Positions 38,884 through 61,500 are shown, counted from the stretch's first letter. The stretch is DNA of 64,000 bases from Obrimoposthia wandeli (GCA_977020255.1 CDROCS010000023.1:124001-188000); one strand, 5' to 3'. Numbers and translations: made by a program. The notes: generated by a model not told the origin, from the letters alone.

Positions 38884-39959
38884 TAAATGTGTTTAATTTT
38901 GTATTATTCTCTGACTTCTTTCTTATTTAATTTTTATTATTTTTTAATATATAATTTAAGTTATTTAAATAAATTTTACCATAATCCTTTAGATGCGTAA
39001 GCCTGGGAAAAACTTTGATCTAAATTTTCACATAGCGTAGTAGGTATTATTACGTAGCACATTTCTTAACTGATAAGAGTGAATTTTAACCTAATTTTCA
39101 AATATAATAGTGTGTATTATTACGTAATACATTCCTTAACTGATAAGAGTGAACTTTGATTAAATTTCACATAGAATAATTGATTGATTACTATATGATT
39201 CTTTAACTTATGCCAAATCTGATCCTTAACTTGTGGACGACGTAAAATATTTACATGATTAAACTCGTAATATGTTGACAAATACAACCATGTACTTAAA
39301 ACTATGAAATTCCAACTTTTTTAATCCTTCATCTATGAACGACCATACCATTATGAACAAATTCGCCTTCTAAAGATGATTCCAACCATGTACTAAAACC
39401 TTGATATTTTAAACTTTATTTTGTCTTTAGCTCGACTATCTTTATGGACGACCACACCCCTTTAGATATGTGGATCAACTATAGATGGTCATGATCATAC
39501 CTACAAACCTTCAAGTCAAAACTGAGTTCGACACTTTCATCTATGGACAACCACAACCTCTTGGGTATGTTGACCGACCATAGACGGTCACGACCATATC
39601 TTCAAACCTTCATAACCTTTCTGAGCCAGACCTTGTGGTGTGGCAAGACACCCTTATGGTGAGGCAACATATACCCTTATGGTGTGACACCCTTTAACAA
39701 TGTGTGCGCACACACAGGGGGTCAAGAGATCTAGACTCCATCCTTCTACCTACTAATGTGTTTCCATTAAAATATGACACTTTGAGTTCGCACAAGAATT
39801 TATTTGTTAATGCGTTTTTCACAAAAACCTCTTTTTGTCACATCTGTTGGTTGTGTTTTTTCAAACACACCGATGATCTCTTCATCTTCTTCTAATATTT
39901 CTTGTGATGCAATGTGTTTGATGACTTCTCTTTCTTCTTGATGTTTCATCCAGAGCATG

Positions 39960-42399: not shown

Positions 42400-43183
42400 A
42401 AATATATATATATATATTTACACATACACACAAACACAAATATCAGTATAACTATATATATATTATTATGTCCTTGACCTCATACACAGTATAAGCGATA
42501 TCTTATATAGAATTTGCACTGACACAACCACAGTATAAACTTAATCTCAAATAGAATTTTCACACACACCTACAAACACATACATTGTATAAAAAAATTA
42601 TTTATATCCTTATATATAATTTCCAAACACACAGACATATTATAAGTGATATCTTATATATAATTTTTATACACACATACACTTACATATAATAAAAATA
42701 ATTTATATATCCTTATATAGTATTTCCAAACACACACACATAGTATAAACGATATATTATATATAATTTGCACACACACATAGTTTAAACTATATATTAT
42801 GTATAATTTTCACACGCACATACACATACATATTATAAAAAAATATTTATGTATCCTTATATAGAATTTCCAAACACACATACACATACACATATTTAGT
42901 ATAAAAAATTATTTATATATCCCTTTATAGAATTTTCAAACACACACACACATATAATAAGTGATATCTTATATATAATTTTTACACACATACACTTACA
43001 TATAATAAAAATTATTTATATATCTTTATAAAAAATTTCCAAACACACACACATAGTATAAGCGATATCTTATATATAATTTGCACACACACGCACACAC
43101 AAAAATCTATACATAGTATAAAAAATTATTTATATCCATATATATAATTTCCAAACACACATACACATAATATAAGCGATATC
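42400..43183. repeat. AT/(CA)n compound satellite, unit about 40 bp
   Basis: Repeated ttatatataatttccaaacacacacacatagtataagcgatatc variants, ending exactly at the Polinton terminus. Confidence 0.85.
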
Positions 43184-43370
43184 AGTAGGTAGATGTGTCC
43201 GGTCTAATCCAGCCCCTCCCCCTTCCTTCGCTGATTAAAAAACAATGTTTATAAAAAAATACATATAAGATACAAATATTAAAAAAAATAAAACTGATTA
43301 TTAATTGCCAAATGAAAGAAACATAGAAAAACCGATTACAATTTATTACATGCAAAATGAAAGAAAAAAG

Positions 43371-43913
43371 TTAATACATAGGAATATGAGCACGTTCAAT
43401 TTTCCACATAGGCAACTTTGTTCCCATTTCATCTTTCTTGTAACCATAAAGTCGAATTGTTATAGTCCATTGCTTCCTTTTCGGAAACGCATCAACATCT
43501 ATTTCTCTTCCATACTCATCTAGAAATTCTGCATCGGCTCCTCGGATATAAAATTCATTCTTATTGAAAGTAAAATTTGGAACTGCCTTTTCAACTTTTT
43601 GTTTAAGATATTGAAAATCTGGTTTTTGAATACCTGATAGATAGTAGCTGAACTTTCTTCTTTCAATTGTCACAGGATTTACTAAAGCAATCAGTTGAGC
43701 CTTCTTCAAGAATCTAACTTTGTATTTGAAATATTGTTTCACTTCTTCATACATATCCTTATCCGATTCTTCAAACATTTCTTCGTCATCGCTAATACCC
43801 GTTGGCTATCGTCCATCATTGATAATTGTCTTTGATATGAATGCATTTATTGTGATTTGTCCTCCAATGGCGCATTCGTTTATACTAATTTGTAACAAAC
43901 ACATGAATCTCAT
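43371..43913 (-). pseudogene. Unknown Polinton protein of about 180 aa with one premature stop; beta-rich C-terminus, possibly SSB/OB-like
   Basis: ORF 43371-43778 extends in frame through a single TAG (about 43806) to an ATG at 43913. A fragment copy lies at about 58225-58340. The function is a guess. Confidence 0.55.
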
Positions 43914-43940
43914 TAGCTAATATAACTAAAGCATTGAATT

Positions 43941-44089
43941 TGATTGGACTAAATCGATATTAAAAATCAAATTTGATTGAAGAAATCTATCATCCAAATA
44001 TAGGTTTGCAAGATAATAACAAGAAACATGCAATGAAAAAGCAGGTTCAGACATATATAAAGAAGATTTTACAGAATAAAATTTCAGTC
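43941..44089 (+). promoter_or_regulatory. Core promoter of the TBP-like gene: CCAAT box, TATA box, initiator
   Basis: TGATTGG at 43941-43947, TATATAAAG at 44054-44062 and TCAGTC at 44084-44089 (A at 44086, 32 nt from the TATA start). ATG at 44092. Confidence 0.6.
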
Positions 44090-44091
44090 TA

Positions 44092-44591
44092 ATGAAACTC
44101 GTAAATATAAATTATAAGGGTAGAACAGAAGATGATGTTTCGTACTTACCATTCAATGAATGGAAGCCGAGACAATATGTAGAAAAGTTTGACAATTTCA
44201 CAGTTGTTATTTTTCCTACAGGTTAGTTTTTTATTTTATTTTCATATTGAATTCTTTAGGAAATTGTCGTGTTATGGGATGCAAAATACCAATGCTTGGG
44301 TTCAATTTACCATTTGGAATTCAAATCACCGCAATACAATCAATCACGATTTCGGCTAATCTCGGGAAACAGATAAATCTTTTTAAAACTGCAGAGAAAA
44401 TGAAAGAAGAATGCATGTTTGAACCAGAAATTTTTCCTGCTCTCAGTTATTTGAAGTTTAAACCGCTATGTGTAAATATATTTTCCAGTGGTAAAGTTAT
44501 GATATTGGGATTGAAAAATTTTGATTATCCAGACATTGTTGATTTGATTTTAGAAAATATATCTTATTACATCTTGTTATCTTTTCTATAA
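44092..44591 (+). CDS. TATA-binding-protein (TBP)-like protein, about 154 aa, two exons
   Basis: Exon 44092-44221, 38-nt GT-AG intron 44222-44259, exon 44260-44591 give an uninterrupted ORF. It has two TBP half-repeats: MKLVNI...TVVIFPTGNCRVMGCK and IQSITISANL...FEPEIFPALSY...CVNIFSSGKVMILGLK (compare TBP TALIFSSGKMVCTGAK and YEPELFPGLIY...LLIFVSGKVVLTGAK). Confidence 0.85.
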
Positions 44592-44619
44592 ACAAACCCG
44601 TTTAAACTTATTGTTTTGA

Positions 44620-44892
44620 ATGAATAATACTATAAATAGAGACAATGAAGTGTATCGTCTTGCCGACGAAATATTTTTGGGAAAAATTAGGGGTAAAGAA
44701 ATTTTATCAGAATTAAAAAATAATGATATAACAATAGATAACATTGAAATATTGGTTAGATCACACGTTATTCGAGAATTTAGAAATCGTACACAAATAA
44801 ATAAAATTATAGCCAAATATTCATTAATTATTTTTTGTATTTCATCTACAATAGCTCTAACATTGTACATTTCAATAAGGAAACTTCTATGA
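44620..44892 (+). CDS. Small protein (90 aa) with a C-terminal transmembrane helix
   Basis: Intact ORF between the TBP-like and ATPase genes. Hydrophobic YSLIIFCISSTIALTLYISI followed by RK. Confidence 0.6.
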   Translation: MNNTINRDNEVYRLADEIFLGKIRGKEILSELKNNDITIDNIEILVRSHVIREFRNRTQINKIIAKYSLIIFCISSTIALTLYISIRKLL

Positions 44893-44930
44893 TAATATAA
44901 ACAATATTAAAAAATGAAAGAGTATATGCA

Positions 44931-45578
44931 ATGGAGCTAAATAATAATGCTGTATTTCAAATAGTTGGCCCTAGTGGAAGTGGAAAGACACATTTCGTAT
45001 GTAAATTGTTGCAAAATGAATCTCTTTTCAAATCTAGTTTCAAAAATATTTATTGGCATCATGGTGGAGGAGGGGAAAGCGGATTAACCAAAACAGAAGT
45101 TTGCAAGTTGAATTGTATAAAATTTATTGAAGGATTTGATGCAAATTGGTGTGAAAGATTGAAAAAAGAAGATGTAATAATAATTGATGATTTGTATGAG
45201 GAGGCTAACAAGGAATCGGACTTTAATAATTTATTTACAAAGATTGCAAGACATCGTGAAGTAACAGTTATATTTATCACTCAGAATCTGTTTCACCAAG
45301 GAGGTCACCATAGAACAAGAAATCTTAATGTATATTACTTAGTTTTATTTAAAAATCCTAGAGATCAAACAGTTGTTGATTTTGTGGCCAGACAGGCATT
45401 TCCTCAAAATAAGAACTTTCTAGTTGATTCCTTCCACGATGCTGCTAAACAAGCACATGGGTATATATTTATTGACTTTACACAAGCTTGCCCAGATGAT
45501 TTACGTGTTTTAACCGACATATTTAATTCTAAGGGAGTAACTGTTTATAAACAAATAGAGAACAATTATAAAAAATAA
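44931..45578 (+). CDS. A32/FtsK-like genome-packaging ATPase
   Basis: Walker A GPSGSGKT, Walker B IIIDD, ARHREVTVIFITQ and YLVLFKNPRD, typical of Polinton ATPases. ORF intact, 215 aa. Confidence 0.92.
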   Translation: MELNNNAVFQIVGPSGSGKTHFVCKLLQNESLFKSSFKNIYWHHGGGGESGLTKTEVCKLNCIKFIEGFDANWCERLKKEDVIIIDDLYEEANKESDFNNLFTKIARHREVTVIFITQNLFHQGGHHRTRNLNVYYLVLFKNPRDQTVVDFVARQAFPQNKNFLVDSFHDAAKQAHGYIFIDFTQACPDDLRVLTDIFNSKGVTVYKQIENNYKK

Positions 45579-45757
45579 ATTCGCAATACCTTTTACAAAG
45601 TTGATAGTAAAACGTAAAGTAAAATCTAAAAAATCAAAAAAAAGAATCATTAAGAAAAAATAAGTGAAAAAATTAATCAAATCTGTAGTTAAAAATAAAA
45701 AAAAACTTAAATGGCTTCGAATATAAACAATATTTAAATTGAACCTTTTTTATTAAA

Positions 45758-46087
45758 ATGAAGAAAATACAAAGAAGCATACCCTATTTTAAAGCTTAAG
45801 TCAAAGCCTCTTCTAATACGAGAATGATTATTCTTAAAGTATTTCCATCTTTTGTTGTAGATGATTTATTGGAAGTTTTATATAATATAGTTTTGGGTCG
45901 AGTAAAAGTTGGAAATCGGAAAAATATATTAAAGAAATATAGAAAAACTCTTCTAGATATTGCTAATGTAAAAAGTTAAAAAAGGAAACGAAATATTATT
46001 CTTAAACAGAATGGTGGTTTCATAGGAGCTGTTATTCCAGTTGTTGCTTCAATTATCAGTAGTATTATAGCTGCGACACGTTCATAA
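45758..46087 (+). pseudogene. Small basic Polinton protein with an adenovirus pX/Mu-like C-terminus (two premature stops)
   Basis: MKKIQRSIP...LLEVLYNIVLG...KQNGGFIGAVIPVVASIISSII*, 110 codons in frame. A second, frameshifted copy lies at 54196-54480. Confidence 0.6.
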
Positions 46088-46173
46088 ACAATTATTTCTA
46101 AAATCAGCTAAAGATATAGGTGCTAGCCCTTCTTTACCTAAACTTAAATTTTCTTTCTATTCAAATTGTTGTA

Positions 46174-47372
46174 ATGGAGAAGATATGGTTCAATCCAAAA
46201 GATCCAATTGGCTACACAGGAGTTTCAAAATTAGCAAAAAGAACAAAACAAAATTACAAGAAAACGCAGAAATGGCTGAGCAACCAGTTAGCCTACAGTC
46301 TGAACAAACCGATGAGAAGAAGGTTTCCAACTAGAGCTTACAAAACCAGCGGTCCTAATAATTTATGGCAAATGGATTTGATGGATATGATCCTATATTC
46401 TTCCATTAATAAGGGATATCGATATATTTTAACATGTATTGATGGCTGAGCAACCAGTTAGCCTACAGTCTGAACAAACCGATGAGAAGAAGGTTTCCAA
46501 GTAGAGCTTACAAAACCAGCGGTCCTAATAATTTATGGCAAATGAATTTGAAGGATATGATCCCATATTCTTCCATTAATAAGGGATATCGATATATTTT
46601 AACATGTATTGATGTATTTAGCAGGTTTGCTCGTGCAATTCCAGTTAAAGCAAAGTCTTCAATAACTATGCTTGAAGCCATTAAAGAAATATTAAAAGAG
46701 GACATTCCACAAAATGTGCAAACTGATTTAGGAAAAGAATTTTATAATAAGCAAGTTCAATCATTATTTAAACAAAATAATATAAATCATTACTCTGTGT
46801 TTTCACAATACAAAGCAGCAGTAGTAGAAAGATTTAATCGTACTCTAAGAGATCGAATAAAAAAGTATTTCACAAAAGAAGGAAATAAAAAATGGATCCA
46901 AGTTTTACCTAAAATAATACATGCATATAATCACTCTGAACATAGAGGTCTCAAGGGAATGAGACCTGTTGATGTTACTAATAAAAACTCTAAGGAGATT
47001 TGGATGAACAGGAATAAAAAATAAAAAAATAAAAAAGCTAAATATAAGAAAAACGAAAATGTTCGAATTTCGAAAATTAGCTCTTCTCCATTTATTAAAA
47101 ACTTTGATCAGAATTGGAGCGATGACATATTTTGTATAAGTAAAATTGATCAAAAGAGTAATCCAATAATGTATACTATTAAAGATGCTGACAATAATAT
47201 CGTTCACGGTAAATTTTACAAGCAAGAACTACAAGTAATATCAAATAAACCTAGCGTTTTCCATATTCAAAAAATATTAAAATCTAAGGGTACAGGTAAA
47301 CATAAACAATACTTTGTTAAATGGCATGGTTATTCAGACCCAACTTGGATATCAGCATCTAATATAATATGA
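46174..47372 (+). pseudogene. Retroviral-type (rve) integrase with C-terminal chromodomain
   Basis: LWQMDL, CIDVFSRFA, VQTDLGKEF, AAVVERFNRTL, and chromodomain FHIQKILK...YFVKWHGYSDPTW. Disrupted by a 170-bp tandem duplication (46272-46441/46442-46611) and an in-frame TAA at 47022. Confidence 0.95.
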
Positions 47373-47728
47373 AGTCTATGTATATAGTTTTACCTAGTAA
47401 CGGATGTTCGAAGACTCAACCAGATAATTACGCTAGTAGCTTTATTATCGATTGGGAAAATCCTATAAATCTCCAATGAGAATGGGAAGCGGCTTTAACA
47501 GAATTTTCCTTTTATTATTCTCTAATTACTATCAGAAAAAACTCGCATATTTTGTTTACAAAAGAAGTTGATCATGAAAAATCAATTGAAGTTATGATTG
47601 GGTTTGATAGTAAAGGAAAATTCTATTACAATTGTATAGATAAAGAAGTGAAAGTAATATATGAAAAAAACAAAGTCATATTTAAAAATAGACTAAAACA
47701 TTTTTTAAAACCTATTCAAATTAGGTAA
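47369..47728 (+). pseudogene. Putative minor capsid (penton/PX-like) protein, N-terminal part only
   Basis: The start overlaps the integrase stop (ATGA). MYIVLPSNGCSKTQPDNYASSFII...*EWEAALTEF resembles the LPSN...P.N..S.F...G.WEVAL.E N-terminus I recall from this Polinton gene. One premature stop; truncated. Confidence 0.55.
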
Positions 47729-47838
47729 GGTCCATCCTAAAAAACGTATTGAAATAACAAATAAGTTAGAGTCTAGGTGCCATAGGGATCTAAAATTTTA
47801 AAAAACTAAACTAAAAAAAATCAAAAAATGAAAACCGT

Positions 47839-49135
47839 TTAAATTCTGAAGTGTCCATAAGCCAGGCTAGCGTTCTTTTCTACCCAAAAGCGTTTGTCGT
47901 CATTACTACTCAAAGCGATTTTGGTTGATTTATGGGAATACAGTTGATGGGCTCTTGAAATAAATCTAGTTTGCTCAACGCTTTCAATACACCCAGTATC
48001 ATAAACTTTCCGGTAGGCCTCATGTGTAAGATTGTTTCTTCCCACACCCTTTGCTATCATTGAACATGTATTATTAGATGCATGTAAACTGTAGCATTTA
48101 GGGCGTAGGAAAATACAATCATCATACGAAACCTGTCCCTCGCTTTCATCCTTAAATTTCCCTATAATATACTTTAAACTCATAGAATGTAGAGGATGGT
48201 TAGCGGGATATTTATGGGTATCTAGTAAGTTGTCCCTAAACATTGCTGGTAATAATTGATTATTTAAACTAACATTCCTACATTCTAAAAAGAAAGAGTC
48301 AGTGTCCCCTGCCACGATTTTGATCTCACAATTAAATTCTTGTCGGTATTTCTCCAATTCTATGTATTGAAGCTCATACATTCTGAGTTTAGAAATGTCT
48401 AAAACCGTTTGACCTATATAACTCGGTCGATCGAGACAAATACTCTGTTTTTCTAATAACACTGCTACCAAGTCATCTGCAATTGTAAAACTACGCTTGA
48501 AGTTGTACTTGCTAGTATATGTTATTAGTTTACGCTCATCATTGCAAAACCATAGACAAATACGTTTCCGCAAGTCCTCTACAGTTTTTCCAAAGAGGCT
48601 ATTACTTTTTAACTTGTAAAAATCTCAATCGAATTTGCCAGTGGCCAAATTACGTTTTCTTGAATTCTTGTCAATATAGTCTTTAAACACAAAGTTTTGA
48701 CTGAAGCTTATAGTACGATGAATTCGAGTAACTTTTGCTCCCAACTTTAAGTAGAATTGAAGAAGCCGCCAATGCACAACATAATTCAACTTGTCTTCAT
48801 GGGTTAACAATAATTTCTTCACCTTTGAATTAGGAGGGCATTGATGAACAGGCGCTACTGGAAGATCATCTAATTTATCATGCACATTGGGAGGGATTTT
48901 TAAATCAACCAAAGGTTTTCGCAAATTTATACGGAAAAGTCCCCTTATCGTTAACCGAAGCTGGGAACACTGACTGTGTAATTGGCTATGCATTTAAAGA
49001 TGCCGTTAAATTTTTTAAAGACCCGCTCAAAAACTGTAGAGAATCTATGAATCTTAAACTGCAGAATTCAGTATATGCAGTTAAAGATAAATATTTCTCT
49101 GAAGTTTGAGGTATACATGAAATTTCCCAAGAGAA
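47839..49135 (-). pseudogene. Protein-primed DNA polymerase B (family A copy 1), internally deleted
   Basis: FIDSLQFLSGSL..KGTFPYKF is joined at about 48912 to VDLKIPP; then YVVHWRLL, motif B KLKSNSLFGKT, DRPSYIGQTVLDISKLRMY, motif C IVAGDTDS, IGKFKDE, LRPKCY, ALSSNDDKR. Exo III and motif A are missing. Confidence 0.95.
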
Positions 49136-49139
49136 ATTT

Positions 49140-49820
49140 CATTAAAACGATTGTAGAACGATATTTCCTGAATAAAAAATAAAAATAATATATATATATT
49201 AAAAATAAAATATATAATTACAATTTACAAAAATAAAAAAATACCTAATGATGGCAATCCAAGTTGAGCTGGAATGAAGTCCTCTTCATTGATGGAATCC
49301 ATCCAGCTGTCGTCCGTTGACTCGACGAAATCGGATTCCTCGATGGTCTTCAACCATGAGTTATCGCTCCACTGAGGCTACTCCATCTCGAAATCTGACT
49401 GGGTGATATTTCGCATCCAGTCATTGTTTGAGAATTGGGTTGCTGGTGCCAACTCCTCAAAATATTCCTCGGAGATGTCGTTCATCCACTCATTGTTTGA
49501 CATTAGAGTGGATGGAGCAACAGCAGAATCAGGAGCCGGGAGAGAAGGACCAATGGCAGGACCATAAACTGGTAGACTGACTGCTACTGGAATTGGAGGT
49601 GGAGCTGGAGCGGCCTGCGAATCGCGCACCAATTGGACGATATCCCTCTTCTTGTTGTTGGCCGTGAAACACGATAGGTGAGCTCGATGTTCACTGAAGA
49701 ATTCTCGAAACTCCTTCTCCTCCATTGTTCTGCAGAAGGGGCAGACGAAGAAGTGAACACCTTGAGACTTTGTCCGGTAGTATGCAGACATTGTCTCCAT
49801 GCAGGACTCTCCTCCTGCTT
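49140..49820 (-). pseudogene. Cys/His (zinc-finger-like) protein with a Pro-rich linker and four acidic W-x-x-I-x-x-x-x-F repeats
   Basis: HFFVCPFCRTMEEKEFREFFSEHRAHLSCF; then NNEWMNDISEEYF, NNDWMRNITQSDF, (TAG at 49378) DNSWLKTIEESDF, DDSWMDSINEEDF. Possible terminal intron at about 49244-49168. A second copy lies at 56494-56730. Confidence 0.6.
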
Positions 49821-50048
49821 TTAAAGAGAAGGATTGTTTATCTATTATAGCTTGAAAAAATAATTTTATTCCTCCAATTAAAGAGAAGGATTGTTTATCT
49901 GTTATTGGTTGAAAAATTAATTTTATTCCTCCAATTAAAGAGAAGGATTGTTTATCTATTATAGGTTGAAAAAATAATTTTATTCCTCCAATTAAAGAGA
50001 AGGATTGTTTATCTGTTATTGGTTGAAAAAATAATTTTATTCCTCCAA
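49821..50048. repeat. Tandem array of 4 x 57 bp
   Basis: Units start at 49821, 49878, 49935 and 49992. Degenerate units occur at about 50090 and 56820-57000. Confidence 0.95.
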
Positions 50049-50114
50049 ACAAAAGGCTTATTTGTAAATAATTGTAAAATTTTAATAATGAATTCCTCCA
50101 ATTAGAATAATTGT

Positions 50115-50603
50115 TTATCTACATGTCAAGTAATAATAAGAAAGACTTAAACATTTTTTATATGCGCAATGGTCACCATGATTACGATATGGACAGCAAA
50201 TATTTTGTGGAATATTTAATAGATGATCACGTGAAATATTTTAAGTATTCAACCTGAATTTAGGAAAATATTTTTTTAACGTCTTATATTTTTTGCCATC
50301 CATTTCATCTCAAACATAAAAAATTCCATTTTCAATATCAAAATTAGATTTAATAGTATCGAAAATACATATTTCACAAAAAGCCTTATGTCCTTCTTTC
50401 CATTTTAATAAATGGAAATATTTAGTTAGATATAAATTAGTAAATTTTTTCTTATAATCTAAACTTTTAAATGGGATATCTATATAAAATATGAAATGCA
50501 AAGGATGAAAAACGTCGCATACATCCATAATACATAATTCTTTTATAATATAATCCCCTTTTTTGTTAATGAAAGCCTCAAAATCTATGATATATTCCTG
50601 CAT
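50115..50603 (-). pseudogene. Stand-alone DEDD/DnaQ-like 3'-5' exonuclease with a C-terminal Cys/His cluster (two premature stops)
   Basis: MQEYIIDFEAF...YIIKELCI (Exo I D-x-E), HFIF, HLLKWKEG, FYV*DEMDGKK, CCPYRNHGDHCAYKKC. The copy at 56995-57210 has the C-terminal half without the stops. Confidence 0.6.
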
Positions 50604-50751
50604 AATTACCCAAATTTGTAGCAAATCCCGTTGTTTATAACGAAAAACTATTATTCAAAAATTTATTAAAATGACGAGCTAGTATTTAGACAATTTTATA
50701 TTTAGACAATTTTATAACATAATCAATAAAGACAAAATAATAATCAAAAAT

Positions 50752-51054
50752 TTATTTTTTTGTGGAAGGACTCTCTTCCGGTTTAATCTGGAGGATTCGA
50801 ACATCCTCCGTCTCTTCGCTTCTTTTTTCCTCCACCTTCTTTTTTTCCATTTCGATTTTCTTGTTCCACTCCACAACCCGACATCGTTCTGCTAGCCGCC
50901 TGTCCTGAATCTCCACCCGACGATTCCACTCGATCGCGACAGCAGTATATAAATTCTGGTTGAGGATCCTCTTTCGTAAGTCTCCTTTCTTCTCATTTAT
51001 TCTTATGTTTGCCTCGATCTTCGTCACCAAACTTTGCAATTTAATAAATTCCAT
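50752..51054 (-). CDS. Small charged coiled-coil protein (100 aa)
   Basis: Intact ORF with an upstream TATATATATAG. An inverted decayed copy lies at about 57765-57990. Confidence 0.55.
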   Translation of the reverse strand: MEFIKLQSLVTKIEANIRINEKKGDLRKRILNQNLYTAVAIEWNRRVEIQDRRLAERCRVVEWNKKIEMEKKKVEEKRSEETEDVRILQIKPEESPSTKK

Positions 51055-51346
51055 TTTTTAATTATGACGATGTTAATAAATTTGAACCTATATATATAAA
51101 TTTAAGATATTTTTAATCCAATCACAAGCAATTAAAATATATTTATCAAATGAAAGTTTAATAAATATATAACTAATCATTGCTTTTATATTTAATCCTA
51201 AAATTTTTTAATTATTCCTTAACAATCCATTCACATTTGAATAAGTTAACTTTATTTTTAATCTTGTTATTTTAATAAACTTAAGTAGTATATTTTAATA
51301 TTACTAAATTCTAAAATAAATAATAATAAAAAGACAACACAAGAAA

Positions 51347-53453
51347 CTAATGTTTAATAATTATATTTTTGAACATTTTTACGAAGTCATCATTGGGATC
51401 ATCCGGGTCGTAATCCCTCCGACTTAGTTTTATAGGAGAGAGCGGTACAGGTTCCTTCTTCTTTGGCCGGCCCGGTTTCTTTTTCGGCTTCACCGGTTGC
51501 TGTACAGCAATTGTCCTTCCCTCAGGTTTTGGCAATAGTTGCCGCAACGTTTTGGGAGGAGGTGCAGCCGATGTTGATGGCCCGGACATAGAAGCAGTAG
51601 CCTTCCTCTTCCGCGGAGCTTTCTTCTGTTTCTCCTCCTTCTCACGCTGAAGCTGGCGTGAGACGGCATCCTGTTGCCCACGCGAATCTGGAAGCATTGC
51701 CGGTGTATCCAGTTCCGCCAGGAATTCGTCCAAACCAGCGTCATCCCAGGCCCTCTTCAAGTTTTGGCTGGTTGTTGGACGAGGAGAAGCAGTCTCATGC
51801 AGACGTGGTTGACTCGAGGGCGGACTTATCTCGATCGGCGAGACTGGGATCCTCTCGTATAAAATTGGACCGTCGTCCACTGGAGGAGGGAGAATCTCCT
51901 GCTGGCCAATCACCGCCTCAGAATAATGGCCAATTGAGGTGCGAATTTTTCTCGAGCGCCTCGTCTTCTTCACCTCTGCCCGCTTTGTCCTTTTCTTAGG
52001 GAAAGGAGTAACTTCTCCCCAAGTCTCCTCAATTATCCGGACAGGTTCCTGCAAATGAAAACAAAAATAAAATTTCAAATAAATTTTATTTAATTAAAAA
52101 AATATTTAAAATACCTAAAAATTACCTCAATAATCTTATACGGACGTTTTTCCGGCCGCTCAATCGTTACTTCACTCGAATTGAGCAGACAGGATTTCGC
52201 CTTTCTAAGACGCCATGTCTTCCGTACAGCAGCCTGCTTCGTTCGCTTCTGCGGGAAAGGATAAATTTTGGCCCATGTATCCTCAGTTAATATTATTGGT
52301 TCCAGCAACAAAAAAACCTTATAAAATTTAAACATATAAATAATTTACCTCGATGACGGGTAGATTAGCCTGTTTCACCAACTTGGCATTCTTCCGATGG
52401 ACCGTATTGGTTTTGACCCGATGACGTCGAAGTTTCTTAACTGCCGCTTGCTTCCTATCGACAGGTAGTCTCCGAGATGCCTCCTCCCAAATTTCCTCCA
52501 CCAATTCAGCTTCCTAAGTGAATAATTAAATAAATTTACTAATTTATAATAATATACCTCAATTTTAGCCGGAGTCGGTAGGTATCTCTGATCAATCCTG
52601 GGATCATCCTGGCTACATTGACTCGCCAAGTATTGCGGTTCAATTAGCCTCTCAATCGTGGTCACTGACGGTGCCAAATCCAGTTGCAGTTTCTGAAAAT
52701 AAAATTAAAAAACATTTTAAATAAATGATTTCTAACCTCATTCGTCGCCTTTATTCTCCTAACAGGACGTATCGGAGATTGTGGCCTTCTGAATGGATCA
52801 GGCACTGTATTGTCGGGTATCGGAGTCGGAGTTGTAGAGGGAGTGAGACCATCCCATTCGTCGGTGAACAGATGCCACTCATCTTCATCCATTTCTGCAA
52901 CCATGGACTCGTTGGCTCCTGGGGCTCCGATACTTGGCTGTATCCACTCCTCCTCCCCATCCGACGGAACGTCATCAGTAAACAGCTCCTCGTCTGAGTC
53001 TGGTGCCAGTATTATCTCCGGTTGAGACAGCGGGATCAATTTCCAGGGGCATTTGATTGCCGCCTCAAAATTGTCAAAGAGATTGGATCTCCTTGCTGCT
53101 ACTGCTGAAGTTGCCGGACGATTGGCTTCTGTGTTCAGCCTGGGAGTACAGTCTTCCCAATTCTCTATCGATTCCTGACTAGTCAGATCGATATATTGGG
53201 ATCTCTGTACCCCACCTCGCACGCTCATATGTTCTTCTCTTGGAGTTGAGCTGGCCAATGGCGGTTCTTCTAGCAACAGTTGGGCTCTTGCTGCTGCTTC
53301 TCCTTCGTCTCCTTCACTCACCACCGACGAGTCTTGACTAAGTAAGTCAATGTACTGCGCCGGTGGTGGCGTTCGCTGCTGTACTGGAGAGAGATCTCCA
53401 TACAGCTGAACCTCCGTCTCTTCATCCAAATCGACGTTGTTGAAATTTTACAT
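51347..53453 (-). pseudogene. Five-exon, about 630-aa intrinsically disordered nuclear-type protein (SIM-like, NLS and AT-hook-like motifs)
   Basis: Exons 53453-52737, 52692-52558, 52513-52349, 52302-52126 and 52048-51347. All introns are phase 0 (44, 44, 46, 77 nt) and give one continuous frame. Codon 2 is TAA and the intron-3 acceptor reads TG. TATATAAG at 53516-53509. Confidence 0.7.
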
Positions 53454-53850
53454 TCTTGCTTCTTGATTAATGATATTTGATTTATGAAAAATAATGAAAA
53501 GAGGTTTCCTTATATACAAAAAGAATAGACTAACCCTCTTTTGTCGTCCAATGAGAGTGGGTTAATCAAATAATTTATTTGAAAATCAGTAGGCTTTTCT
53601 CAATTTTTTAACTATGTTTGAATGCTGGAATGTCATTGGATAAAACATATTTTATTCGAAAATATAACTATTTTCTTAAGATTTTGTTGCTTAAGTTTAA
53701 CGTCCAATGAAAACGTATTATTCTAAGAATTTATGGTATTTTCTTAAATTTTGTTGATGTTTGAATACATGTATATCTTTGGATTTAAAATAGTAATCTT
53801 TTCTTGACTGTACATGTTTGTATGGTATAAAAAATTCATGAACCTATTTA

Positions 53851-53873
53851 AGGTCAAGTTAAGGTCATGACCT
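53851..53873 (+). promoter_or_regulatory. Composite nuclear-receptor half-site cluster (AGGTCA DR5 plus IR0)
   Basis: AGGTCA-agtta-AGGTCATGACCT, about 290 bp inside the right terminus and upstream of the five-exon gene. Confidence 0.4.
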
Positions 53874-54159
53874 GTTCGCGAGCCTGTATTTATTACTCGT
53901 TGATCCACCGCGAGCCCGGAGGGCACGCTTTGGCCAATATTTTGGCGACTCAGAACCTTAATCAAAATTTTTGGAGCATTATGAGATTTTTAAATTTAAA
54001 GGGTGTTATATGGAGTTAATTATTTTTTTGAGTGTTTGGGAGGGGGGGTAGAAAGTCTTTCTACACACCTACACGAAATTTCACTCCACACACATGCACG
54101 GTTTTAAAGGACAGTAGGGGGGAGGGGAGTGTGGATTAGACCGGACACATCCACCTACT

Positions 54160-57100
54160 CATCTACAATAGCTTACAATAGCTTAATTTTTAAAATGAAG
54201 AAAATACAAAGAAGCATACCCTGTTTTAAAGCTTTGATCAAAGTCCCTTCTCATAAGAGAATGATTATTCTTAAAGCATTTCCATCTTTTGTTGTAGATG
54301 ATTTATTGGAAGTTTTGTATAATATATAGTTTTGGGTCGAGTAAAAGTTGGAAAACGGAAAAATATATTAAAGAAATATAGAAAAACTCTTCTAGATATT
54401 GCTAATGTAAAAAGTAAAAAAGGAAACGAAATATTATTCTTAAACAGAATGGTGGTTTCATAATAGCTGTTATTCTAGTTGTGATGTTTGTTGACAAAAG
54501 TCATTCCACCACGTATACCATAATCATACATTTGATACATCGCAGGATCTTGCAGTAACTCTTGCAGTTGCTCATGAAAGACCGGGTAAACTAAAGAAAT
54601 GCATGGGATCTAGCCCATCCTCTGCTAAAGATTTTACACGAAAGGACTCAAACACATCAGCTAAAAGATAAATGTCTAACTTCATATAATAAAGCATATA
54701 ATCTAGAAGATTTCGACCATTATTCTCCTAAAATGTACGGGCCTCATTATAGTCTTGAAGACTTACACCCTCAAATTCAGTTATGGGTGGGATTTCTGTA
54801 GTAGTTTCCAAATCTGCACAGGTTTTCGCAAATTTATACGGAAAAATTCCCTTATCATTAACCGAAGCTGGGAACACTGACTGTGTAGTTGGCCATGCAT
54901 TTAAAGATGCCGTTAAATATTTTAAAGACCCGCTCAAAAACTGCAGAGAATCTATGAATCTTAAACTGCAGAATTCAGTATATGCAGTTAAAGATAAATT
55001 TTTCTCAGAAGTTTGAGGTATACATGAAATTTCCCAATAGCTTAATTTACCCAAAGCGTATTTAAATATATGATGCAAATCATATCCTTTGAGGTTATGT
55101 AACACGATGGGAATTCGTGGTATTTTAGGGAGACGACGGCCAATGTTACAGAGGTTGCACGCTGCTCCCAAGTATCGCCCCGTAACATGATCGTGATCTC
55201 TGACTAACTTAGATTGGGTTCCACACAAATAACATAATCTACAAGAATTAAAATTAACCCAGTCTATGCCTGTCATGATCATTGCTTGATGAGCATTAAG
55301 ATCATACCACGGTTTGATAATTGTTGTTCCTAATTCTTTTCAAAAGCTATTCTAACCTAAATGGTAAGCAAAGAATCATGGCCATCTACTCGAACTCGAA
55401 GAGGTGGATTAGTCCAGGTATATCTAACTACTTGCACGGTATATTTTCATAAATGCAATAAAAACCGCTTGTTTTAAAGAAGTATCTGAAATTAGATAAG
55501 ATTATATCCTCCTGATAACTCATCGAATTCTCACAACAAATAGCATGACTCATTTATATTTCCGGACAAAAACTACGAGTATCTAATTTAATAATAGGGG
55601 GCCTTACTTAATAGTCGTCAAAGGCAGCAATACAATCAGGAATTTATCCGATTACACCCGAAGTTTGGCTGGGGGTATGACCTCCAAGGGTTTTATAACC
55701 CCTTAAAATTAATTATTTTGTCAATGATCATTCAAACAGTAGCAATGTGTTGGTGGGCCTCCAATGGTTCAAATCTCTGGAGAATGGCTAGAAGTTTGCT
55801 TTTTAAAATAAGTTGAACAACATTTACACACCACCATTTTACTAGAAATTTATTTCAATTAAATTCTTTTATGGTTTCTTTTGCAATTTAAAAACCATTT
55901 TAAATGTAGATTGAGAAAATTTTGGAACACTCTCTATAAATGTGTGTATTGCATAACTGTCAAAAAGAATTTTTTTTTAAGAGTTATTTAGTTTATTATA
56001 CATTAACCAGTGGCCTAAAATATTTCAATGGGTCTTTGAAAACTTCTTAATTTGTCAGAGTTAAGGCCTGGTTGGGTTCTGTTGAGAAATTAGGGGTTGA
56101 AATTTAAAAACCAAATAAAAAATTCCTCGTAATTTGGGATTTATCCCATTCTCATCGTCATGACACCACATATTCAGCGAATTTACCAAATAGACAGTTA
56201 GGGCACTGGTTTGTGTGGTATTTACAAGAAATTATGACTCAACAAAAATGTTCATTATATATTTGAAAATTAAATCGAATGAATATTTTACCACAAAGAA
56301 AACTTTGCAAATAATTTATATTCTTTTCCCTACCTGTGCCATATACATTAAATTACATTTTCTTATAAAGCAGCATTGTTTTGCTGATTCCATGGATCAT
56401 TTTGGATCCCGATTGGGAACGGATTAAATCATACCCTTGAACCAATTAACACAAAACTAAAACACATCTGACTTTATTTCGCGAGTCTAAATATCAAATA
56501 TTTGCAGTGAAGCAGGACAAGTAAGCTTGATGTTCATCGAAGAAGTCTCGAAACTCCTTCTCCTCCATAGTTCTGCAGAATGTGCAGATGAAGTACACAT
56601 GCCCATGAGACTTTGTCCGATAGTAGACGGACATTACCGCCATGCAGGAAACTCCGTAACAGGTTACACGTAATCTGAAATAATAAATATTAATAAATAA
56701 ACAAAAAATAAAGGTTCTTACAATATTCATTATTTTAAAATTCGGGGATTTATATGAAAAAGGTGTTTGTTTATATACTAAATTTTATGCACACATGCTC
56801 TTTTCTTATTGGATGACAATATTGAATTTATTCCTCCACTGAGAAGGGTTGTTTATCTGTTATTGGTTGATAATATTATTTTTAATATATTTTATTCCTC
56901 CAATTAAAAGGTTTGTTCATTTGGATTTAGATATTTTGTTATTGGTTGAAAATGTTATTTTTATATATTGTATTTCTCCATTTAGAAGTATTGTTTATCT
57001 ACATGTCAAGTAATAATAAGATAGACTTAAACACTTTTTATATTGGCAATGATCACCATGATCACGATATGGACAGCAAATATTCTGTGGAATTTTTAAT

Positions 57101-57445
57101 GGATGATCACGGGAAATATTTGAGGTATTCAATCTCAAATTTGGAAAATAATTTTTTAAAGTCTTAAACTTTTTGCCATCCATTTCATCTAAAACATAAA
57201 AAATCCATAGAATCCTCTCGTACAAAATTGGCCCGTCGTCCACTGGAGATGGGAGATACTCCTATCGGCCAATCACCACATCTCTAGAATTGAGCATTGC
57301 GGTGTTACATTTTCTTACAATTTCTCCCCATTTCACCTCAATTATCTGGACTAGTTTCTGTAAAAAATTAATAAAATTTAAGCGTATAAAAAATTTAAAA
57401 TAATAATAGAGGGTGGATTAGACCAGACATATCCACATACATACC
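54160..57445. mobile_element. Polinton family A copy 2 (scrambled and deleted, same orientation as copy 1)
   Basis: Contains a pX-like copy (+), the pPolB N-terminal part (-), a ZnF gene copy (-), a fused spliced-gene/exonuclease segment (-), and a degenerate right terminus (gtggattagaccagacatatccac) at about 57412-57440. Confidence 0.75.
54480..55430 (-). pseudogene. pPolB N-terminal region with an endonuclease VII-like His-Me finger and exonuclease motifs
   Basis: CYLCG...VRDHDHVTGRYLGAACNLCN, IPIVLHNLKGYDLHHI (Exo II), FIDSLQFL, KGIFPY; after a frameshift, KLDIYLLADVFESFR..EDGLDPMHFFSLPGLS (Exo III). Confidence 0.92.
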
Positions 57446-57637
57446 GAGAATATTTGTTCTTTAAATATTCTGTATACAGGTATAAATATATGTTGTGTTT
57501 GTAGAATCTAACTATTTTTGTAAAATCATTAAATTCTTTAACGGACAATTGAATTTTTAATGATCTGCCGGGTAACAATTAAAGGGCGCTAATAAAAAAC
57601 ATGAATTTTCAGTTGAATCTAATTAGTGTTTATTATC

Positions 57638-58350
57638 AGTAGGTGGATGTTTCCGGTCTAATCCACACCCCTCCCCCTGTCTTTTAAACCCGTGCATGTG
57701 TGTGGAGTGTGGACTATATCCTAGTTTTTTCGCCCCTCCTCCCACCGCCCACCGCCCACCGTACAGAATTTGTATACTGCTGTCGCGACCGAGTGGAATC
57801 GTCAAGATAGGCGACTAACAGAACGACGTCGGGTCGTGGAGTAGAATAAGAAGATCGAAATGGAAAAGAAGAAGGTGGAGGAAAAAAATAAGAGAATAGA
57901 TGGAGGATCATCGGCGCGCAGCAAGAAAGAGAATCCTCCAGATTAAACCGGAAGGGGGTGCTTCTACAAAAAAGGAAAATTTTGATTATTATTTTGTAAA
58001 TATATTAGTAAAGGATCAGATAGACGGATCGCGTTTTCAAGAATTTATTTGATTTAAGAATATATATTCAGAGTAAGAGATCGTTTATCAAAAACCAGAT
58101 TCCACAAATATCGATTGATTCAAGGAATGGAAATGAATTAGAAGTCAAACATTTTTGTAGTTTAACAATTGTTTTTAGTGAACTTGAAAAAATAGAGAAA
58201 TAGAAAGTACTAGAGAAATAATTCACATATGTAGCTTTGTTCCAATTTCACCTTTCTTGTAATCATAAAGCCGAATTGTTACAGTCCATTGCTTCTTTAT
58301 CGGAAACGCATCAACATATATTTCTCTTCCAGATTCATCTAAAAATGATG
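57638..58350 (+). mobile_element. Polinton family A copy 3 remnant (inverted right end)
   Basis: Starts AGTAGGTGGATGTTTCCGGTCTAATCCACAC with right-end subterminal sequence, then the coiled-coil gene copy on + and a fragment of the 43371-43913 gene. Confidence 0.75.
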
Positions 58351-58506
58351 CATCATATACTTTAATACGCGTTAGGAACTTTAAGATCATGGGAATAATC
58401 TTTTATACCTCAAAATGCGGAGAAATATTTATCACATGCCAACTTTATGTGGATGTATGATGTGGAAGAGTTGAATAAGTTGATGACAGATGTTAGCTAT
58501 TTGGTT

Positions 58507-61500
58507 AGTAGGTAGAAGGATGGAGTCTAGACCACTTGACCCCCCCCCCTTGTGCGCACACAAATGTTAAAGGATTTTTCAACATAAGGGTGTCACACCA
58601 TAAGGGTGTCTTGCCACACCATAAGGGTATATGTTGCCTCACCATAGAAATGTCACACCATGAAGGTATATGTTGACTCACCATAAGGGTGTCACACCAT
58701 AAGGGTATATGTTGCCTCACCATAAGGGTCTGGCTCAGAAAGGTTAAGATAGGGGGGAGGGGGGAAGGGTCAAGTGATCTAGTCTCCACCCTTCTTTGGT
58801 ATACCACTATGGTCGTCCATAATTCAAAGGGTCAAGGTCAGTTTTGACTTGAAGGTTTTAAGGTATGATCATGACCGTCTATGGTTGGCCATCACATCTA
58901 AAGGGTTGTGGTCGTCCATAAATCAAAGGGTCAGACTCAGTTTTGACTTGAAACTTTGAAGGTATAATTAAGGTCAACTATGGTTGGCCATCACATCTAA
59001 AGGGTTGTGGTCGTCCATAGGTCAAATGGTCGGACTAAAAAAAAATTAAAATATCAAGGTTTTAGTACATGGTTGTAATCATCTTTAGAAGACGAAGTCA
59101 CCCATAAAGTATGACTGTCCATAAATCAAAGGGTCGAGCTATAGACCAAATCAAGTTTTAAATGTCAAGGTTTTAATACATGGTTGGAATCATCTTTAGA
59201 AGACGAATTCATCCATATATGTATGGTCGTCCATAGATGAAGGGTTAAAGAAAAGTTGGAATTTCATAGTTTTAAGTACATGGTTGTATTTGTCAACATA
59301 TTACGAGTTTAATCATGTAAAAATTTTATGGTCGTTCACAAGGTAAGGGTTAGATTTGGCATAAATTAAGAAATTATATAGTATTCAATCAATTATTCTA
59401 TGTGAAAGTTCACTATTATCAGTTAAGGAATGTATTACGTAATCACACACACACTATTCTATGTGAAAATTAAGGCTAAAGTTCACTCTTATCAGTTAAG
59501 GAATGTGGCTTTTAACACACATACTATTCTATGTGAAAATTTAGATCAAATATACTCTTAAGGTTATTCATACTTTAAGAGGTCCTGGTGAAAAAATAAA
59601 AATATTTTTTAAATTTAAATTTGTGCCAAATTATTTTGTTAGATTTTGATAAAGTTAAACAAATTTAATTTATAGAATTTTTTTTTTTAAAAATATTAAA
59701 GTAACATTATTTAAAATAAATATTAAGGAAAATGTTAATAAACTCNNNNNNNNNNNNNNNNNNNNNNNNNNNNNNNNNNNNNNNNNNNNNNNNNNNNNNN
59801 NNNNNNNNNNNNNNNNNNNNNNNNNNNNNNNNNNNNNNNNNNNNNNNNNNNNNNNNNNNNNNNNNNNNNNNNNNNNNNNNNNNNNNNNNNNNNNNNNNNN
59901 NNNNNNNNNNNNNNNNNNNNNNNNNNNNNNNNNNNNNNNNNNNNNNNNNNNNNNNNNNNNNNNNNNNNNNNNNNNNNNNNNNNNNNNNNNNNNNNNNNNN
60001 NNNNNNNNNNNNNNNNNNNNNNNNNNNNNNNNNNNNNNNNNNNNNNNCGCAAATTTTTATCCATTTTATTTATGTAATTAAACAATTCCTGGTGGAAAAT
60101 AAAAATTACTTGTAATTTTGTTTTCTTCAAAATAATAATTTAAATTTGCGCCAATTTAATTTGTTAGATATTAATAAAGTTAAACAAATTTTAATTTAAC
60201 AAGTTTTTAAATATTAAAGTACCAACACATCTATCAATCAATTATTCTATGTGCAAGTTCACTCTTATTAGTTAAGGAATGTATTACGTAATCATACACA
60301 CACTATTCTATGTGAAAATTTAGTCTAAAGTTCACTCTTATCAGTTAAGGAATGTGGTTTTTAACACACACACTATTCTATGTGAAAGTTTAGATCAAAA
60401 TTTTTTCCTAGGCTTATACATCTATAGAATTATGATAAAATTTCTTTAAATAACTTAAATTATATATTAAAATAAGAAAGAAGTCAGAGAATAATACAAA
60501 ATTAAACACATTTATTATGTAATTTCATAATATCATCTTCAAACTTAAGTGAATAACATTTACAAAGTAAGAAAGTCCATTCTTTATACATTCTTTTCGT
60601 TTCAATGACTAAGTTACAACAGAAAAAAAAACAAAACACTAAGTTTAACGCTATGAATGAAAATTAGTAAAATATTAATTTATTTGAATATTTGAATGAT
60701 AGTTTGAATAAATGAGAGTTAGATTGAATGTAAATGAATACAAGTATGAATGCAAGTATGAATGTAATTTACAAGTAAGAGTCTTAGCAAGTGAATGTAA
60801 TTTTTAAAAAAAAATAAGAGTGTCGATAGTTTGATTGAATACAAGTGTAATTTAGACTAAAAGTAAATTAAAATAGAGTTTTCGTTGAATAAATTATAGT
60901 TAGATTGAATGTAAATGAATGCAAGTATGAATACAAGTGAATGCAAATACTAGTAAGAGTCTTAGCAAATGAATGTAATTGGGGAAAAAAAATAAGAGTG
61001 TCGATAGTTTGATTGAATGCGAGTGTAATTAGACTATAAGTAAATTAAAATAGAGTTTTCGTATGAATAAAGTTATGTTAAGTTACAGTTAGATTAATAA
61101 CAAGTAATCAACTATAAGAAGCAGTGATATTGAAGTATGTTAAAAGTTAGAACGACTAAGTTACAGCAAGATTAATAGAAAACAACACTAAGTTTGAAGG
61201 TATGAATGAAAATTAGTAAAATATTAATGTATTTGAATGTAATTGAATGATAGTTTGAATAAATTACAGTTAGATTGAATGTAAATGAATGCAAGTATGA
61301 TTGAATGCTGTTACAAGTACAAGTAAGAAAGAATACGACTGCAAGTACGAATGTCAATTATGAATGAAAATTAGTAAATATATTAATGAATTTGAATGCT
61401 AGTTTAAATATGCGAGAGTTAGAATGAATGTAAGTGAATGCAAGTATGAATGCAAATACAAGTAAGAATCTTTGCAAGTGAATCTAAAAATGCAAGTGAG

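Follow-up and report, generated by a model that had tools for sequence, protein, structure and literature searches.

The window studied here is a stretch of 64,000 nucleotides from Obrimoposthia wandeli (GCA_977020255.1 CDROCS010000023.1:124001-188000), and positions 43184-54159 of it, ~11 kb in a 1.35-Gb AT-rich eukaryote genome, are a dead copy of a Polinton element. The copy belongs to a Polinton family of ~17.5 kb with capsid and protease-like genes, whose miniature TATA-binding protein (mini-TBP) on balance probably serves as the switch of the late genes, reading the word (C/T)ATAAAC(A/G) before the packaging, capsid and integrase genes. Such a mechanism is likely in view of the fold, the residue pattern, the strand and distance bias of the word and one control group. 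The TBP gene is real, and together with the promoter word it is a testable variant of Polinton biology, a field in which two questions are at issue: do animal Polintons count as true viruses whose life cycle is regulated, and by what means are their capsid genes switched on?

The mini-TBP gene lies at 44092-44591 (+), with exon 1 at 44092-44221, a 38-nt intron at 44222-44259 and exon 2 at 44260-44591. A first reading of the stretch, made from its sequence alone (the sequence-only reading), had proposed that the family brings its own TBP, and this is borne out by a gene with open exons, a match of exon 2 to the Pfam family PF00352 (E 4e-12) and its retention in sister copies. The sisters are 27 loci of 20-30 kb each, fetched from 150 ATPase matches in the genome (minus-strand hits with enough room), a sample biased to ATPase-like copies; all 150 matches scored are 98-100% identical. 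In the sisters scored, the TBP intron has GT in 22 of 22 and AG in 21 of 21. Six environmental proteins, intronless and 119-190 aa long, match exon 2 at 50-54%, and the 38-nt intron is confirmed because full-length intronless homologues (144-169 aa) match exon 1 as well as exon 2. The introns of the element's genes in general are predicted from homologues and conserved GT/AG ends. As judged from codon comparison, the mini-TBP (~150 aa) is under purifying selection across divergent Polintons, with dN/dS of 0.11-0.45 in all 26 pairs within range among 34 TBP open reading frames (ORFs). A wider TBP search gave 79 clusters at E<=1e-10, cellular TBPs included, and a Polinton core gene stood on the same, mostly short, contig in 20/61 environmental TBP loci. 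Several divergent families of the same genome carry the TBP in other gene orders, and the locus L175 (JANOGQ010000345.1), found by its capsid alone, has both the TBP and the late word.

Some of these relatives show features of their own. L175 is a near-complete TBP-bearing Polinton and L176 a partial relative, and both are filed inside bacterial metagenome-assembled genomes, where they are probably mis-binned. The distant element L135 (capsid at 27% identity) keeps the mini-TBP and the late word, and also has ORFs that we take to be PLA2-like, C2H2-zinc-finger and KilA-like. The TBP-bearing family L156-L159 (C2837, C74), from the same genome, has an ORF between TBP and ATPase that is presumably BIR/IAP-like by its motif, and the metagenome loci L121/L122/L128 carry a leucine-rich-repeat ORF.

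The fold and the residues of the protein are those of a reduced TBP. The AlphaFold2 (AF2) model of the homologue P0001 (pLDDT 89) has the saddle fold of a TBP (Foldseek E 5e-8, TMq 0.69) but not the H2 helix of repeat 1, and its 44 PDB matches at E<=0.001 are all TBP among the matches listed. Both the model and the alignment lack repeat-1 H2, which we take to be the helix held by host TBP regulators, and have an H1 of four residues. The EPE.F stirrup, presumably the TFIIB contact, does not vary among the 34 ORFs, and neither do three of the four intercalating Phe positions; the invariant residues cluster on the DNA-binding face, and the concave face bears invariant polar substitutions. For example, Arg, Cys and Asn are found in 34/34 ORFs at positions aligning with yeast I194, V203 and L205, where the V203 assignment hangs on one gap. 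Mutation at these positions in yeast TBPm3 alters TATA specificity, according to PMC1636458. From motif co-occurrence and the kept stirrup, we infer that the mini-TBP would bind a TATA-type element and TFIIB. When the ORFs of 59 loci were clustered, no unassigned ORF family common to all TBP-bearing loci, and thus eligible as a viral partner for TBP, was found.

The second component is the late word. In the window copy, ATAAACAA stands at 44588-44595 (+), ahead of the open gene for a small protein with a C-terminal hydrophobic segment (TM; 44620-44892, +), and further late words stand ahead of the ATPase (44897-44904, +), pX (45723-45730, +), the integrase (46084-46091, +), the penton gene (47302-47309, +, within the integrase coding sequence) and the exonuclease (50631-50638). 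Across the family, ATAAAC(A/G) is found upstream of the second SSB gene (whose protein product binds, by prediction, single-stranded DNA) in 15/16 copies, TM in 21/22, ATPase in 26/27, pX in 24/26, integrase in 22/23, penton in 24/24, PZ in 22/23, capsid in 23/23 and exonuclease in 18/18. It is found at TBP in 0/22, at the coiled-coil gene in 1/13 and at the gene for an intrinsically disordered protein (IDR) in 0/10, where TATATAWR and CCAAT stand instead; the canonical TATA box of the TBP gene, an early-type promoter, is at 44054-44062 (+) and is kept in 21/22 sisters. An early right arm and a late left arm had been proposed for the copy, and as a rough split this holds; as a strict one it fails, with an early-type TBP gene on the late arm and an exonuclease with a late word on the early arm. 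Other families shuffle the gene order relative to that of the window.

The word is also kept beyond the family. In divergent elements, ATAAACA lies within 130 nt of 51/57 ATPase, pX, integrase, penton, PZ and major capsid protein (MCP) starts (background 4%), and upstream of 9/12 exonuclease, 0/3 protease, 2/12 SSB and 1/42 TBP starts, the rows being dereplicated, with one penton row that is a PZ start and some TBP rows that are not Polinton genes. The form (C/T)ATAAAC(A/G) is strand-biased (61 forward sites against 3 reverse ones across 7 loci), and five starts of the family have ATAAAC(A/G) at a distance of 32-36 nt ahead of them. Where the word falls within coding sequence, it is kept at the DNA level: xAT-AAA is used in 11/12 cases while the residue varies N/H/Y/D, and ATA (8/8, background 0.36) and AAC (7/8, background 0.29) are the codons used. 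TATAAA and CATAAA are one-base variants of AATAAA and the genes stand in tandem, and the word could for these reasons be read as a polyadenylation-type signal of the upstream gene, with a TBP role that is unrelated. This is very unlikely: A precedes ATAAAC in only 14/90 sites and A or G follows in 73/90, at three sites the word falls inside upstream coding sequence, 41-100 nt ahead of the next start, where cleavage would truncate the message, and in L175 the word also precedes a gene whose upstream neighbour, the polymerase gene, lies on the other strand.

The control came from an unrelated TBP-less Polinton group of the same genome (L181-L200), in which the word is found at 0/49 starts; the TBP hits seen in 2/10 of its loci come from TBP-type insertions next to them. 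In three distant elements that gave no TBP hit, the word stands before 1/10, 0/15 and 1/11 listed ORFs. Scans of viral contigs by ATPase and capsid, and a phage collection, gave no close TBP-less relatives, and searches of genomes that used a distant ATPase and a distant capsid yielded only matches of 41-43% and 28-31%. As separate observations on the control group, several of its copies have a PLA2-like domain in the integrase ORF, its double jelly-roll (DJR) capsid matches PF21738 at E 2e-17, and its genes start right after a T-run and AAAAA motif, which is a different promoter or start signal.

These results also bear on a reading in which a host factor, either a forkhead protein or the host TBP/TRF, reads the word, and the mini-TBP acts as a decoy or as an inhibitor, tying up TFIIB or damping host transcription. 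ATAAACA equals what we take to be the forkhead core site, and a protein that has lost H2 but kept the stirrup would fit the role of a TFIIB sink. We nevertheless regard this reading as rather unlikely, because the strand bias of 61 vs 3 and the often fixed distance of 32-36 nt are core-promoter-like, ATAAACG variants occur, the invariant residues cluster on the DNA-binding face, and the word is absent from the TBP-less group of the same host.

The late-switch mechanism would work in three steps. First, host TFIID and a CCAAT factor would transcribe the TBP, polymerase, coiled-coil and IDR genes from CCAAT and TATA promoters. Second, the protein-primed family B polymerase (pPolB) and a gp2.5-type SSB would replicate the linear genome, with protein-primed strand displacement as the mode of copying. 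Third, the mini-TBP, with its more polar DNA face and intact EPE.F stirrup, would bring host TFIIB and Pol II to the late word, and the outcome would be a virus-like early-to-late cascade. A helper could also supply the reader of the word, which would then be the late promoter of a large DNA virus, with the element expressed virophage-like during co-infection. Promoter matching of this kind is reported, in the portion of the literature available, for virophages and Polinton-like viruses, and proteins resembling the SSB and TBP are found in large DNA viruses; however, the element's own TBP, GT-AG introns and CCAAT and TATA promoters point to nuclear host Pol II, and no helper was seen, although no search for one was made. 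We consider a helper improbable to much the same degree as a polyadenylation signal.

If the late-switch mechanism is right, the mini-TBP would prefer (C/T)ATAAAC(A/G) over TATAAAAG, and a natural 150-aa TBP with altered specificity would show which TBP parts are dispensable. A defined factor and a defined 8-nt word would bring capsid-gene switching within reach of tests that need one small protein and a reporter but not the whole element. A wider claim, to which we give even chances, is that a broad animal Polinton clade runs an autonomous early-to-late cascade by a one-protein switch, the smallest known TBP, re-tuned to a private (C/T)ATAAAC(A/G) and stripped of the regulator helix, which would be a convergent, minimal counterpart of the herpesvirus late complex with the integrase under late control.

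Several points weigh against the late-switch mechanism, which is suggested by co-occurrence. First, on the protein side, the P0001 model is that of a homologue 52% identical to exon 2 and not of the window protein, and in the window's family, window included, Ser takes the place of the Arg that is invariant in the 34 other ORFs. In repeat 1, the phenylalanine ahead of the second strand varies, and therefore DNA binding could be weak alone. Second, selection within the family is uneven. Private variants among family copies are near neutral, and shared variants (those in three or more copies) show purifying selection in the capsid, integrase, pX, ZnF and IDR exons (P 0.001-0.02), but the exonuclease (0 synonymous, 5 nonsynonymous) and the penton N-part (omega 2.4) show no selection, and in the TBP of the family such shared variants are too few for a judgement. 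Third, pPolB has TATA and CCAAT but also ATAAAC(A/G) 110-127 nt upstream in 16/18 copies, so the two promoter classes are blurred, and the protease lacks the word in 3/3 starts scored, with ATAAACG there in L175. Fourth, the rows behind the 51/57 starts are related by descent, and the TBP-less control consists of a single distant group, with 10 loci that are related, and three distant partial elements, with no close TBP-losing relative; with distant controls only, shared ancestry could therefore explain the pairing of TBP and word.

By every firmly testable feature, the element family is Polinton/Maverick. The pPolB matches PF03175 at E 1e-3 on the window fragments and at 1.4e-6 on a neighbouring copy, and has long ORFs in the sisters; the integrase matches the rve domain (PF00665, E 5e-12) and has a chromodomain, and the packaging ATPase is A32-like (PF04665, E 1.8e-6). 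In an ATPase tree of 17 rows, with no reference Polintons among them and a long-branch warning, 13 TBP-bearing rows group together (100/99). The family's 409-aa capsid ORF itself has no match in Pfam, but its MCP profile matches a PF21738-positive (Pfam-DJR) capsid with 92.5% probability (E 4.7e-7, 307 columns), and PF21738 is found at E 0.04 in 1/6 aligned capsid members. By this indirect profile match, the ORF qualifies as a predicted double jelly-roll major capsid. After the capsid comes a protease-like gene with HW-I-A and CG..C motifs, which we take to be a protease catalytic pattern; it has no Pfam match, and its best PDB match, weak at E 0.59, is the S273R protease of African swine fever virus (ASFV). 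A penton-like ORF of 352 aa stands at the expected position and is conserved in 17 loci, again with no Pfam match.

The sister copies also settle the state of the window copy. Family terminal inverted repeats (TIRs) are ~100 bp long and start with AGTAG, and the fullest copies are 17.2-17.6 kb. Both termini are present in 13/27 sisters, 10 of these 13 with a 6-bp target-site duplication (TSD). In 24/27 sisters, an extra segment, mostly 2.8 kb, stands at the point corresponding to 47723/47726, and in it lie the remainder of the penton-like gene, a PZ-like gene, the 409-aa capsid and the protease-like gene; MCP sequence is found in 22-24/27 and protease sequence in 23/27. Uninterrupted frames are kept in 4/27 copies for the capsid and in 3/27 for the penton. 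The sequence-only reading had taken the copy for a compact Polinton lineage lacking capsid and protease and having a multi-gene regulatory cassette. Capsid, protease and PZ sequence indeed have 0% coverage in the window copy, 1-2/27 sisters are also without them, and the loss by deletion that had been placed near 47730 was found adjoining that site, as a private deletion of ~2.8 kb with its junction at 47723-47726. That junction, however, has 1 match in 1.35 Gb and the sisters hold the extra segment at that point, and therefore there is no compact lineage. The copy also has no TSD (its flanks are GATATC / CATCTA), most of its genes are broken, and ZnF and unknown(-) are replication parts, the latter by prediction. 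In view of sister gene content, the extra segment and the single junction match, the compact lineage was rejected as almost certainly wrong; the supposed capsid-less lineage is an ordinary decayed copy. The accessory genes could also have been flanking captures; each is found in 18-24/27 sisters, so they are the element's own. As a side observation on the termini, the 26-nt terminus has 15,725 exact genome copies, partly from tiny derivatives, many being back-to-back pairs that form 175-297-bp derivatives resembling miniature inverted-repeat transposable elements, with a 6-bp TSD in 6/8 checked (L201-L208).

The window copy is a dead, internally deleted element copy. Its termini are at 43184 and 54159, as first given, and the genes listed earlier (TBP, TM, ATPase, pX, integrase, truncated penton, pPolB, exonuclease, coiled-coil and IDR) were found again at their coordinates. 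The left terminus (43184-43230, +) keeps ~47 bp of the ~100-bp TIR, starting AGTAG, and is followed by a deletion of ~0.75 kb that also removed the second SSB-like gene; the right TIR is at 54060-54159 (-). The left end is set into a ~100-nt CA/TA-rich minisatellite at 42400-43183. The TBP, TM, ATPase (44931-45578, +) and coiled-coil ORFs are still open. The pX-like core protein (45758-46087, +), so labelled from what we take to be an adenovirus pX motif, has two internal stops. The integrase with its chromodomain (46174-47372, +) is frame-broken by a private 170-nt tandem duplication at 46272-46611. The first third of the penton-like gene (47369-47723, +), so labelled from its motifs and position, has one internal stop. 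Most of pPolB is gone; its C-terminal part (47839-49167, -) has more deletions at 48897-48910 and 49133-49147.

Of the transcription/regulatory module that had been proposed, the TBP stands and the rest does not; the TBP is, as far as the ORFs can be recognised, the sole transcription factor of the element. The ZnF/acidic ORF (zinc finger; 49245-49815, -) is exon 2 of a four-exon pPolB gene, adjoining an intron at 49168-49244, with exon 1 and its TATA box missing here. A separate regulator was rejected on the basis of phase-compatible GT-AG introns into pPolB and of another family in which both parts are contiguous as a single 1150-aa ORF. The unknown(-) gene (43371-43819, -), whose frame is broken near its start, is a predicted gp2.5-type replication SSB by fold. 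Its AF2 model (pLDDT 90.9) gave the highest VIA rows with T7 gp2.5, Enc34 SSB, DUF2815 and ASFV CP312R (Z 8.0/7.7/7.5/7.1, next 4.7, where Z under 8 can be common) and a Foldseek match at E 0.013. A second SSB-like paralogue stands at the left end of sisters, SSB homologues are found in 22/59 clustered loci, and in the Atlas the SSB falls in unnamed viral clusters. The DEDD-type exonuclease-like gene (50115-50603, -), with two internal stops here, also recurs in 22/59 clustered loci, and in the Atlas falls in arthropod clusters with a Maelstrom lead at 0.87. Pfam gave no match for SSB, ZnF, exonuclease, coiled-coil or IDR.

The coiled-coil ORF (50752-51054, -) and the five-exon IDR gene (51347-53453, -), both behind CCAAT and TATA, were found only in the window's family among the environmental and genome loci examined. 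The IDR exons (53453-52737, 52692-52558, 52513-52349, 52302-52126 and 52048-51347) are 717/135/165/177/702 nt long, every one a multiple of 3, and the gene is broken here, codon 2 being a stop and an acceptor having been lost. Although unique to its Polinton family, it is under selection, given an omega of 0.24 for the shared variants of exons 1 and 5. Exons 3-5 start with related basic repeats (52513-51950, -), which suggests exon duplication. A 57-nt tandem repeat in 4 copies lies at 49813-50097.

Elsewhere in the window, fragments of this family that are older and rearranged (77-95% identity) lie at 54160-58460, where more termini are found near 55400, 57440 and 57637. The segments 58505-59250 and 39240-39760 are inverted relative to each other and form a pair of ends of a different, AGTAGGTAGAAGG-ended element, whose terminus also occurs in other fetched loci, and 15502-23765 (-) holds host ABC-transporter exons, presumably resembling white/scarlet.

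Among known systems, Polintons/Mavericks are the adintoviruses of Starrett et al. 2021 (PMC8502044), which, from the part of that source at hand, are like the element in pPolB, rve integrase, packaging ATPase, capsid, penton-like, protease-like and pX-like genes and inverted termini. That part places Cys-rich/acidic 'Oncoid' ORFs upstream of PolB; in the element, the Cys-rich/acidic region instead belongs to pPolB, and the element also has a predicted gp2.5-type SSB and introns in several genes. TBP appears in PMC8502044 as a label on a map of related MELD viruses, with no family, structure, promoter or mechanism given in the accessible pages, and was not found in the text of its supplement, genome maps apart. 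Beyond the Starrett legends (journal and bioRxiv 10.1101/697771), no literature on Polinton TBPs as a family, on the promoter that goes with them or on a gp2.5-type SSB in Polintons was found in openly accessible text, with subscription journals, Repbase and GenBank annotations outside the scope. TBP/TATA terms are absent from the available portions of PMC11161782, 10.64898/2026.10.13.758929, 10.64898/2026.06.19.733378, 10.1101/2025.02.07.637071 and PMC11131425, two of which mention VLTF3 in related elements.

The element's predicted SSB is like T7 gp2.5, Enc34 and ASFV CP312R in its OB-type fold (Z 7.1-8.0, root-mean-square deviation 3.0-3.4 A over 106-122 residues) and unlike them in its 9-11% identity, shorter length and two paralogues in the family. 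With cellular and archaeal TBP (PF00352; PDB 7egb_P, 2z8u, 1ytb), the mini-TBP shares the two-repeat saddle, EPE.F stirrup and IF.sG motifs, but it is ~30 aa shorter, lacks repeat-1 H2, has a reduced H1, has one of the four intercalating Phe positions variable and bears polar invariant concave-face substitutions. The closest counterpart of its proposed role is the herpesvirus vTBP (ORF24 of Kaposi's sarcoma-associated herpesvirus, BcRF1 of Epstein-Barr virus), a virus TBP mimic directing host Pol II to late genes. In the accessible parts of PMC12529657, PMC7498053 and PMC6541308, ORF24 uses TBP-like phenylalanines and a polar-rich DNA face. ORF24 is, in the same excerpts, multi-domain and part of a six-member viral complex, whereas the mini-TBP is a bare 150-aa saddle with a stirrup, for which no conserved viral partner was found; the ORF24 model is, by its title, incompatible with direct TFIIB binding, whereas the mini-TBP keeps a TFIIB-type stirrup. 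Membership in the herpesvirus vTBP and viral pre-initiation complex system was rejected, the mini-TBP being only 144-169 aa long with no ORF family common to all TBP-bearing loci, and its match to BcRF1 (Foldseek E 2.6e-3) shows no homology beyond the fold. If the late switch works as proposed, the element would thus resemble the herpesvirus vTBP system in its working, without being a member of it.

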